This document shows, one piece after another, positions 10,521 to 11,258 of a DNA stretch of 15,960 nucleotides; position 1 is the first letter of the stretch; each line of letters begins with the position of its first letter. The stretch comes from a virus. The notes under the pieces were generated by a model. That model was not told where the DNA came from. It saw only the letters and a list, made by a program, of their open reading frames with translations, and searched no databases. The position numbers and the translations under genes were made by a program. Where the stretch lies: IMG/VR virus record IMGVR_UViG_3300046832_002460, one strand, 5' to 3'.

Positions 10521-10769
10521 TTACAATTGTCCCTTATGTAAGGGTACCTTGGATATTATCTTCCAGGGAGATTTATTCAGATAAATCATGCCACTAGAGA
10601 ATCCTTGGGATACACACCACTGTCTCAAATTACAGGTTTCCACCTGCTCTTGAGTAATTGAATTCTGTAACACAAATGTCATACGAGATCTAGGAATGCC
10701 TTTCTGATAGGGTTTAGATCTATCTGCGGCTCTTCTCTTAACCCCTTGAGATATTTTTTGGCGAGTTTC
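10521..10769 (-). pseudogene. In-frame C-terminal remnant of the second HNH gene, cut off by a premature TAA at 10770-10772
   Basis: The same frame stays open after the TAA. It encodes ...RRAADRSKPYQKGIPRSRMTFVLQNSITQEQVETCNLRQWCVSQGFSSGMIYLNKS, homologous to the HNH-1 C-terminus RRETLAKHSPTAGEERPKFHTILYNTKTHEQLETTHM...GRQFYSGNSGWIIKE. The 15-mer GATTTATTCAGATAA spans the HNH-1 stop at 3063-3077 and recurs at 10570-10584. Confidence 0.5.
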
Positions 10770-11258
10770 TTATGAACATTCCCAATCACCCCTAGCCAAA
10801 AGGCGCGTGTGTTTCTGATCCTCGCTCATAGATTTGCCTTTATTATGTGCCCCGCCTTTTGCTGCTATTCCCTCTTTTACTTTCTGAATATGCTCTGGAG
10901 AAAGTTTCTTGCCTTTGTTATGTACCTTCATTGCCTCGCTCATGCCAGTTTTGATATTTTGATATTGCCGAGAAGACATTCGGAACCTGTCTCGTTTCTT
11001 ATTATCTTGTGTCATCCGCCACAAGGCAAAGGCCATTTTTCTTGCATTGACCCCAAAGGTCATTTTGGTAAGTAATAAATGTGCTACAAAATGTTCTTTG
11101 CCAGTAAGTCTAACAAGATTATCTTTTGCATCATTGCCCCCTAGGCTCTTGGGAATAATATGATGTTTTTCAGTATAGACAGATCTATCTAAATTTCTAG
11201 TTTGAGCATTACTAACCAATGAGATATACCAAGAGGTATATTTGTTATTGATAAACAT
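10770..11258 (-). CDS. HNH homing endonuclease paralog, truncated (163 aa; nuclease domain intact, C-terminal DNA-binding domain lost)
   Basis: MFINNKYTSWYISL...EKHHIIPKSLGGNDAKDNLVRLTGKEHFVAH is about 60% identical to HNH-1 over the first ~110 aa. The RBS is GGAGA 5 nt before ATG at 11258. The track start at 11342 is rejected: it covers the conserved 5'-flank element and extends the paralog N-terminus beyond where HNH-1 begins. Confidence 0.8.
   Translation of the reverse strand: MFINNKYTSWYISLVSNAQTRNLDRSVYTEKHHIIPKSLGGNDAKDNLVRLTGKEHFVAHLLLTKMTFGVNARKMAFALWRMTQDNKKRDRFRMSSRQYQNIKTGMSEAMKVHNKGKKLSPEHIQKVKEGIAAKGGAHNKGKSMSEDQKHTRLLARGDWECS

Follow-up and report, generated by a model that had tools for sequence, protein, structure and literature searches.

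The stretch of viral DNA considered here (IMG/VR record IMGVR_UViG_3300046832_002460) was analyzed over its full length of 15,960 nucleotides, referred to below as the window. One of its genes, HNH-2, encodes an HNH endonuclease and is flanked by a vault-protein-like gene and by a block of tRNA and small genes, itself being on the opposite strand. Translation of positions 10500-11342 on the minus strand gives a reading frame that starts at ATG 11258, runs for 162 codons to a TAA stop, and then stays open for 82 further codons up to a second TAA (MFINNKYTSWY...GDWECS*ETRQKIS...LHKGQL*). The first stop and the roughly 80 open codons behind it had both been noticed in an earlier, sequence-only reading of this DNA and are confirmed by translation. 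In the 246 nt past the stop, the remaining two frames hold 5 and 8 stops, and only 40 of 20000 shuffles keeping the composition of this tail stay open, so that its openness is not a matter of chance. The predicted products have masses of 18.6 kDa (truncated) and 28.2 kDa (full length), in place of the ~19 and ~26 kDa first given. The orphaned tail encodes one helix followed by a compact C-terminal beta/alpha domain, presumed to be DNA-binding. The features of the locus are collected in Table 1.

Table 1. Features of the HNH-2 locus and of its paralogue in the window
Feature	Position	Strand	Basis or content
Terminator-like hairpin of the vault-protein-like gene, bounding the HNH-2 cassette on its 3' side	10477..10502	+	
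Orphaned 3' part of HNH-2: 82 open codons and the original stop TAA 10521-10523	10521..10769	-	
15-mer TTATCTGAATAAATC, judged incidental	10570..10584 and 3063-3077	both -	
Nonsense codon TAA at codon 163; GAA (Glu) in the intact allele	10770..10772	-	locus comparison
Truncated HNH-2 coding sequence, 162 codons: HNH catalytic core and two NUMOD3-like modules	10773..11258	-	
5' leader of the HNH-2 cassette	11259..11345	-	hairpin, conserved block, ribosome-binding site
Promoter-like motif TGTCAA-N9-TATAAATA upstream of HNH-2	11346..11368	-	
HNH-1, intact paralogue, 248 aa, stop TGA, 40% identity	3070..3816	-	BLASTP

The pattern TGTCAA..TATAAATA occurs upstream of HNH-1 (3906-3921) and HNH-2 only. 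Its second element, which is the T4 late-promoter consensus, has four copies in the window against 0.28 expected, and three of the four stand upstream of the three endonuclease genes. Judging from its sequence and position, the TGTCAA..TATAAATA motif may act as a promoter. The leader that follows contains a hairpin (11314-11334), a conserved block common to HNH-1 and HNH-2 that includes the 13-mer GGCTGTCCCACAC (11281-11293), and a GGAG ribosome-binding site (11265-11268) six bases ahead of the HNH-2 ATG. The similarity between the two genes at the DNA level (71%) reaches 57 nt upstream of the ATG. The hairpin occupies the same place in HNH-1, in HNH-2 and in the L012 allele of a sister lineage described below, with stems of wholly different sequence (TTGAAGA/TCTTCAA, CCTGTTG/CAACAGG and CCATTTG/CAAATGG, respectively). 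Rfam, searched over 11250-11620 at a permissive E-value, gave no match.

On the 3' side, the terminator-like hairpin of the vault-protein-like gene has an 11-bp stem with 8 G-C pairs and is followed by TTTTCTTTCT. The GC content is 0.36-0.41 across HNH-2 (10501-11400) versus 0.52-0.56 in the adjoining upstream vault-protein-like gene. Relatives of the latter sit on contigs of up to 384-405 kb, and for that reason the source of the window is probably a jumbo phage. It has no close cultured relative, since a nucleotide search of GenBank phages with positions 10400-11600 gave just four short matches (~100 nt), in T4-like and Erwinia homing endonuclease genes.

Family and domain organization of HNH-2

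Membership of HNH-2 in the homing endonucleases is supported by several types of comparison. Both paralogues match the PHROGs family phrog_655, annotated ‘homing endonuclease’, with E-values of 1.7e-42 for HNH-2 and 1.4e-35 for HNH-1. Searches of GenBank phages by tblastn matched 906 records, mostly T4-like, in which the matched genes are annotated as homing endonuclease, MobE or mobD and share 37-40% identity over the N-terminal 70-90%. The Pfam HNH profile matches the 162-aa product marginally (21.9 bits for a cut-off of 21.4). Residues H32, H33, N47, H56 and H60 are invariant across 19 relatives (alignment A1), and the HNH element appears in the structural model as strands 29-33 and 48-52 followed by helix 53-66. 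For NUMOD3 (PF07460), the intact 245-aa allele P0001 scores 17.1 bits, below the cut-off of 20.4, and its relative P0002 scores 20.9; many homologues carry a precomputed PF07460 match.

An AlphaFold model built on the alignment of relatives has a mean pLDDT of 81.5. It consists of an HNH region (1-115), three helices (121-133, 146-155 and 163-181) and a beta/alpha domain (192-241, pLDDT 83-90). With the stop at codon 163, the last helix and all of the C-terminal domain are lost, the latter being a block conserved in 17/17 full-length relatives of the HNH-2 subfamily. Profiles of Pfam, NCBIfam and PHROGs do not match the 82-aa tail alone, and solved structures searched with the sequence of the intact allele yield weak matches to the HNH motif only (E 0.05 or worse). 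Given that fold searches of the PDB returned no significant match for the C-terminal domain, its DNA-binding role is inferred: the lost part would be a DNA-binding or target-recognition module.

HNH-1 provides an internal reference for the complete gene. Aligned by BLASTP, HNH-1 and the HNH-2 translation continued past its stop are 40% identical over 242 aa (E 3e-52). The homology seen earlier between the downstream frame and the HNH-1 C-terminus holds on formal alignment, where the orphaned 82 aa alone reach E 3e-7; the two peptides quoted for it had been swapped, FHTILYNTKTHEQLETT belonging to HNH-1 and MTFVLQNSITQEQVETC to the HNH-2 tail. The end of HNH-1 (..KRII, then the stop) coincides with the ends of the homologues P0011 and P0012. 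A 15-mer common to both genes, TTATCTGAATAAATC, had been taken to mark the HNH-1 stop and to recur downstream in HNH-2. It has two copies in the window and occurs nowhere else, the HNH-2 copy indeed lying 186 nt past the TAA, but it does not mark a stop there. The HNH-1 copy spans the TGA stop, while that of HNH-2 is read in another frame (I-Y-L-N-K-S), 20 codons ahead of the true end, and in the protein alignment IYLNKS falls opposite F-Y-S-G-N-S of HNH-1, away from its terminus. The same 16 kb contain five further exact repeats of 14-18 nt that are unrelated. In view of the different frames, the non-homologous positions and these comparable repeats, the 15-mer was not accepted as the mark of an ancestral stop.

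The intact sister allele and the age of the stop

A search with the conceptual full-length HNH-2 retrieved P0001, an intact allele of 245 aa that is 97% identical over 100% of the query. In a sister lineage represented by nine loci (L012-L020), its gene occupies the HNH-2 site, with the same vault-protein-like gene on one side and the same small genes on the other. The comparison with orthologues in related phages, which the sequence-only reading had proposed, is thus available at the level of the codon. All nine sister-lineage loci read GAA (Glu) at codon 163, nine loci of the window lineage read TAA, and a single G>T change separates the two codons. Glutamate is also the most frequent residue at this position in the family alignment, where it sits within an ‘S-E-E-T-R-x-K-I-S’ NUMOD3-like motif, and GAA is the ancestral codon. 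Compared codon by codon, HNH-2 and the intact allele differ at 19 codons, with no indel and no other stop. The 90% cluster of HNH-2 contains two more intact variants, P0245 and P0246, and all of its truncated variants end at the same residue.

The tail behind the stop has accumulated 2 nonsynonymous and 4 synonymous changes relative to the intact allele, and no indel; one of its two amino-acid differences, C209, also occurs in the intact variant P0245. Rates calculated by the Nei-Gojobori method between the window and L012 are similar on both sides of the stop. Codons 1-162 have a dS of 0.088 and a dN of 0.013 (dN/dS 0.15), and codons 164-245 have a dS of 0.081 and a dN of 0.010, the tail ratio of 0.13 reflecting 6 substitutions only, most of them probably older than the stop. 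In the flanking genes, dS is 0.07-0.13, dN 0.007-0.014 and dN/dS 0.06-0.19. As its dS equals that of the flanking genes, HNH-2 has been inherited together with its neighbors since the lineages split, and its tail bears the mark of purifying selection during almost that entire period. The stop is young because the dS of both halves matches the flanks, dN/dS is ~0.13-0.15 in both, and no second lesion has appeared; the nonsense mutation is recent relative to the ~3% divergence of the lineages.

The intact 245-aa orthologue with GAA and the lack of further lesions strongly support the earlier suggestion of a homing endonuclease in decay that has recently acquired a nonsense mutation. HNH-2 is very probably a Mob-like, free-standing HNH homing endonuclease of which the window carries a young nonsense allele (GAA>TAA).

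Proposed course of events and fate of the truncated protein

The gene is of the T4 Mob type: its HNH nuclease part is followed by NUMOD3-like linker helices and, at the C-terminus of the intact form, by a putative target-recognition domain. A TATAAATA promoter-like motif, a leader and a ribosome-binding site belong to the gene itself. One G>T transversion turned codon 163 from GAA (Glu) into TAA in the window lineage. Translation would then end after 162 residues (18.6 kDa), with loss of the last helix and the C-terminal domain, and the remaining 82 codons would persist as an untranslated, still undamaged tail. Deprived of its putative target-recognition domain, the truncated protein would no longer be able to home, and HNH-2 would have reached the stage of ‘degeneration’ in the life cycle of homing endonucleases, which follows fixation once no empty sites are left for an element to invade. 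The truncated gene is probably dead.

A less likely outcome is that the truncation has been tolerated or even favored and that HNH-2 is no pseudogene, the 162-aa protein remaining an active nuclease, either similar to natural short relatives with HNH and NUMOD3 only or acting as a nickase of lower toxicity or altered targeting. The C-terminal domain is also missing from many natural relatives of 162-170 aa, and the catalytic residues, promoter-like motif and ribosome-binding site of HNH-2 are intact. However, the short natural forms end in a conserved basic tail (WYKxHAETHxGK) that HNH-2 does not have, and the C-terminal domain is kept by every full-length relative of its own subfamily (17/17). 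Contigs with the truncated allele (40+8+3+1) outnumber those with the intact one (5+1+1), but these counts reflect the sampling of one nearly clonal lineage (99.8-99.99% identical) and not selection. Since natural relatives of 162-170 aa consist of HNH and NUMOD3 only, some residual, less specific nicking by the truncated protein is possible.

Termination versus read-through

The second explanation offered for the stop was that it is read through. The TAA would be decoded, for example by tRNA-Gln(UUG) as Gln or with the help of an ochre suppressor from another part of the genome, and the full-length endonuclease would be made, perhaps conditionally. The intact downstream frame agrees with this proposal, as do code-related genes of the clade, namely an amber-suppressor tRNA(CUA) in the sister lineage and an RF1-like gene in an 82% relative. 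The proposal is nevertheless very improbable, given that the stop is not conserved and that orthologues carry the sense codon GAA. The 21 gene calls of the window end with 10 TAA, 6 TGA and 5 TAG, making TAA the commonest terminator, and none of the 21 contains an internal stop, which answers, for the window, the earlier call for a check of in-frame TAA in other genes. Reading TAA as sense joins only the two pieces of HNH-2 and no other pair of frames of at least 80 codons. Reading TGA or TAG as sense produces noise on non-coding frames only, which speaks neither for nor against recoding.

The tRNAs do not help this proposal either. tRNA-Gln(UUG), described as adjacent to HNH-2 and as a classic near-cognate reader of UAA, is a canonical tRNA (66.5 bits) encoded ~9.5 kb from HNH-2 (1194-1268). 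The sister lineage, whose HNH-2 is intact, has it too, so that its presence does not go with that of the stop. The CUA anticodon of the amber suppressor recognizes UAG and not UAA, and in the window this tRNA is truncated. Scans of the window and of related loci (about 16-43 kb) detected no tRNA with the anticodon UUA. The base directly after the HNH-2 stop is G, and UAA followed by G is an efficient termination context in E. coli. Surveyed cases of phage recoding are, moreover, named for TAG and TGA (bioRxiv 10.1101/2021.08.26.457843). Very low background read-through by near-cognate tRNAs is possible at any stop codon, and nothing points to a programmed event.

A regulated version of the same idea can be formulated, in which the TAA is a conditional switch and an ochre-reading tRNA located elsewhere in the several-hundred-kb genome restores full-length HNH-2 late in infection. 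The idea draws on code-altering genes that the clade has or formerly had, an amber-suppressor tRNA and an RF1-like gene in sister lineages, and on several tRNAs with unusual structured insertions. Its probability is very small. If it were true, the undamaged tail would stay useful and HNH-2 would be a regulated homing endonuclease rather than a dying one.

It is equally improbable that the gene has been split into a 162-aa nuclease and a separate C-terminal polypeptide (ATG 10682, 53 aa) that cooperate. This ATG stands just ahead of the first strand of the predicted domain 192-241, but it has no convincing ribosome-binding site, the sole AAAGG lying ~19 nt upstream, this Met stands at an ordinary internal position of the intact allele, and a two-gene arrangement is not seen in any relative. 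Lastly, an error of sequencing or assembly at the TAA, which the sequence-only reading had named as fatal to its proposal, is excluded: public assemblies produced independently (ENA, JGI, NCBI, Logan) contain the exact 162-aa product in 75 indexed blocks, and nine loci from different samples, 99.8-99.99% identical to the window across 9-15 kb, are base-identical to it over the 1.2 kb of 10400-11600, all with TAA.

Turnover of endonuclease genes and other losses

The window holds three endonuclease genes, which turn over between near-identical genomes. HNH-1 is absent from the sister lineage and from some close genomes, and in L003, a genome otherwise 99.9% identical, its site is occupied by an unrelated gene of 280 aa whose N-terminus is GIY-YIG-like. 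Turnover of endonuclease genes in this phage population is plain. A 74% relative lacks any endonuclease gene at the HNH-2 site, and in a 68% relative another HNH gene is found two genes from it. For the 82% relative (L021), the contig breaks off directly after the vault-protein-like gene, short of the site. HNH-2 is also absent from two IMG/VR loci with a vault-protein-like gene 59% identical to that of the window, but these could not be used as an empty-site comparison, as no gene order is shared beyond that gene. An empty HNH-2 site was looked for among close relatives and none was found, and homing at this locus is for that reason deduced from family membership only.

Other genes have been lost in the lineage of the window. 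Relative to its sisters, a deletion of ~1 kb has removed ATP-grasp genes, and another of ~0.85 kb has removed the 3' half of the suppressor tRNA together with a 189-aa gene. Of the amber-suppressor tRNA(CUA) of the sister lineage, the window keeps a 5' remnant comprising the first 33 nt (12609-12641), and of the RF1-like gene of the 82% relative, the last 50 codons survive (4512-4661). In view of these losses relative to the sister lineages, the HNH-2 stop is one of several recent decay events.

The tRNA genes of the window show a further peculiarity. Several of them carry conserved structured insertions of ~50 nt next to the anticodon. For short tRNA introns in huge phages, the literature searched offered no directly relevant report. 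The insertion-bearing tRNAs are the least expected feature in the window.

Comparison with known homing endonucleases

The T4 enzymes MobA-E are free-standing HNH homing endonucleases, of which MobE is the characterized example (PMC2790892, PMC2988022). They combine a conserved N-terminal HNH domain with a protein-specific C-terminal domain presumed to bind DNA (PMC2790892). HNH-2 has an N-terminal HNH domain of the same sequence family, a protein-specific C-terminal domain as well, and a comparable setting, being intergenic and free-standing in a large phage genome with several endonuclease genes. The differences are that its phage is uncultured, large and known from metagenomes only, that its C-terminal domain is unlike that of any T4 Mob, the similarity covering mostly the N-terminal 70-90%, and that the present copy is truncated. 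In addition, T4 mobE is reported to be promoterless (PMC2790892), whereas HNH-2 has its own TATAAATA-type motif.

Decay of an HNH homing endonuclease is exemplified by I-TevIII, encoded in the nrdB intron, which is defunct in T4 and functional in RB3 (PMC2790892). As in this textbook case of decay in phages, the HNH-2 endonuclease appears inactive in one phage, with a functional version in a relative. I-TevIII is, however, intron-encoded, while HNH-2 is free-standing, and the HNH-2 lesion is a single nonsense codon that leaves the rest untouched, which would represent an earlier stage of decay.

HNH-2 can be placed in the cycle of invasion, fixation, degeneration and loss described for yeast intron endonucleases and discussed for phages (PMC2988022). 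HNH-2 fits this cycle in being fixed in two sister lineages (with the dS of the flanking genes), in having a first disabling mutation in one of them, and in lying near endonuclease sites that are turning over. It differs from the full cycle in that the invasion and loss phases are undocumented, no close relative having an empty-site allele.

With respect to layout, HNH-2 presumably resembles I-HmuI of Bacillus phage SPO1, an HNH nicking homing endonuclease that contains NUMOD-type helices and ends in a DNA-binding domain. The resemblance can also be drawn from PMC2790892. The likeness lies in the succession of extended modules, from HNH through helices to a small C-terminal domain; the difference is that HNH-2 matches no solved structure significantly, be it in sequence or in fold.

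Significance of the HNH-2 allele

The HNH-2 nonsense allele belongs to a well-documented, known kind of event and adds little new biology. The surrounding region, with its endonuclease turnover, tRNA insertions and remnants of a suppressor tRNA and a release factor, may merit more attention than the stop itself. The case also illustrates that an intact frame past a stop is not by itself evidence of read-through. For the biology of homing endonucleases, HNH-2 offers a cleanly dated first step of decay with an intact sister allele at hand, and the 245-aa and 162-aa alleles form a natural matched pair for probing the C-terminal domain of this Mob-like subfamily.

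tRNA genes of unusual structure

Four tRNA genes, two in the window, one in L012 (a member of the sister lineage that carries the intact HNH-2 allele) and one in locus L022, contain a conserved insertion of ~50 nt immediately 3′ of the anticodon. RNAalifold on the four sequences gives a normal cloverleaf with a three-way junction within the anticodon loop, and the stem closing this junction covaries (GGGC/GCCC, AGGC/GCCU, GGAC/GUCC). Two hairpins are also present, and the insertion ends with A-rich sequence (AACAAAA type). Judged by their apparent anticodons, the tRNAs read as CAG or CAA (Leu), UAG (Leu) and, in two cases, UAC (Val). 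None of the four genes is detected by ARAGORN; with Rfam, three score 37-45 bits, whereas the one at window 2082 is missed. An uninterrupted tRNA(CAA) occupies the 1044 site in the sister lineage. The insertion is far too short, at ~50 nt, for a group I intron, and has no match among Rfam ribozymes.

A tRNA-like element is also found close to HNH-2, the homing endonuclease gene truncated by TAA, where the sole stretch that does not align between the window and the sister lineage is 175 nt long (11353-11527). The element ends in ACCA and comprises a D arm, a T arm (CUCCG-UUCGAAC-CGGAG) and an anticodon stem (CUCGC/GCGAG) that closes off 57 nt; it is detected neither by Rfam (E up to 1) nor by ARAGORN. 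At its exact position, the sister lineage has an anticodon-CAU tRNA.

Features of the window and of related loci
Feature	Locus	Positions	Strand	Remark
Insertion-bearing tRNA gene	window	1044-1178	+	
Insertion-bearing tRNA gene	window	2082-2221	+	interrupted tRNA-Leu
Insertion-bearing tRNA gene	L012	15007-15131	-	
Insertion-bearing tRNA gene	L022	11667-11791	+	
tRNA-like element	window	11405-11535	+	downstream of TTGACA-17-TAATAT promoter-like site
Its counterpart, ordinary tRNA	L012	5944-6031	-	anticodon CAU
Amber-suppressor-type tRNA	L012	4792-4867	-	sister lineage; anticodon CUA; Rfam 48 bits
Amber-suppressor-type tRNA	L014	8616-8691	-	sister lineage; anticodon CUA; Rfam 48 bits
5′ remnant of tRNA(CUA)	window	12609-12641	+	first 33 nt
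Third endonuclease-like gene	window	1296-1970	-	224 aa
Gene in place of HNH-1	L003	15313-16155		280 aa
RF1-like release-factor gene	L021	2177-2881	+	82% relative
RF1-like remnant	window	4512-4661	+	last 50 codons, 84% identity
Saccharopine-dehydrogenase-like	window	4678-6081	+	
PP-loop (TilS-like) protein	window	7317-7919	+	
Major-vault-protein-like	window	7960-10449	+	829 aa; MVP shoulder domain, E 3.7e-19
PTH2-type peptidyl-tRNA hydrolase	window	12989-13414	-	
Exact repeat pair	window	1717-1734, 7120-7137		
Exact repeat pair	window	1938-1952, 14816-14830		
Exact repeat pair	window	3270-3283, 7867-7880		

Deletions and short repeats

The window shows losses relative to the sister lineage. The window copy of the amber-suppressor-type tRNA breaks off just 5′ of the anticodon, and a deletion of ~845 nt between two GGGTCTCT octamers has removed the remainder of this tRNA together with a 189-aa gene. 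At 7244-7254, ~1 kb of the sister lineage (L012 10193-11209), spanning the bulk of an R2K ATP-grasp gene (270 aa) and a 120-aa gene, is absent; the junction falls at a shared CAACTGTGCAG microhomology and leaves a chimeric ORF of 48 codons.

Several exact repeats of 14-18 nt, more than expected for a random 16 kb, connect unrelated sites of the window. One of them, GAACAAATGGGGCAAATC, has a copy within the 224-aa endonuclease gene and a second in an intergenic spacer.

Endonuclease genes and the RF1-like remnant

The 224-aa endonuclease-like protein has CxxC pairs, resembling a zinc ribbon, and weak matches to PD-(D/E)xK or endonuclease I-type enzymes. Its gene, with TATAAATA 57 nt upstream, is inserted into the middle of a cluster of tRNA genes, with tRNA-Gln on one side and the interrupted tRNA-Leu (2082) on the other, an arrangement similar to that of segB, located in the tRNA region of T4.

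The site of HNH-1, the intact paralogue of HNH-2, differs (window 2820-4024) among genomes that are otherwise 99.9% identical. HNH-1 is carried by the window and by two near-identical loci, L004 and L007, while a third, L003, has in its place an unrelated gene whose product combines a GIY-YIG-like N-terminus with NUMOD3-like motifs. The sister lineage, including L012, lacks HNH-1 at this site. In two further near-identical loci, L008 and L009, similarity to the window does not begin before 4604, and of the RF1-like remnant they share no more than the final 19 codons, so their junction is a different one.

The phage also encodes four unusual proteins (vault-protein-like, saccharopine-dehydrogenase-like, PP-loop and PTH2-type); relatives of the vault-protein-like gene number in the thousands, some on contigs of 380-405 kb. 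The RF1-like remnant adjoins the HNH-1 insertion. In the 82% relative, L021, the saccharopine-dehydrogenase-like gene is directly preceded by the RF1-like gene, which matches solved RF1 structures (E 6e-36). Within the RF1-like gene, a TGA codon lies in frame and aligns with a position that is Trp or Phe in RF1, a hint that the L021 phage may decode TGA as Trp.
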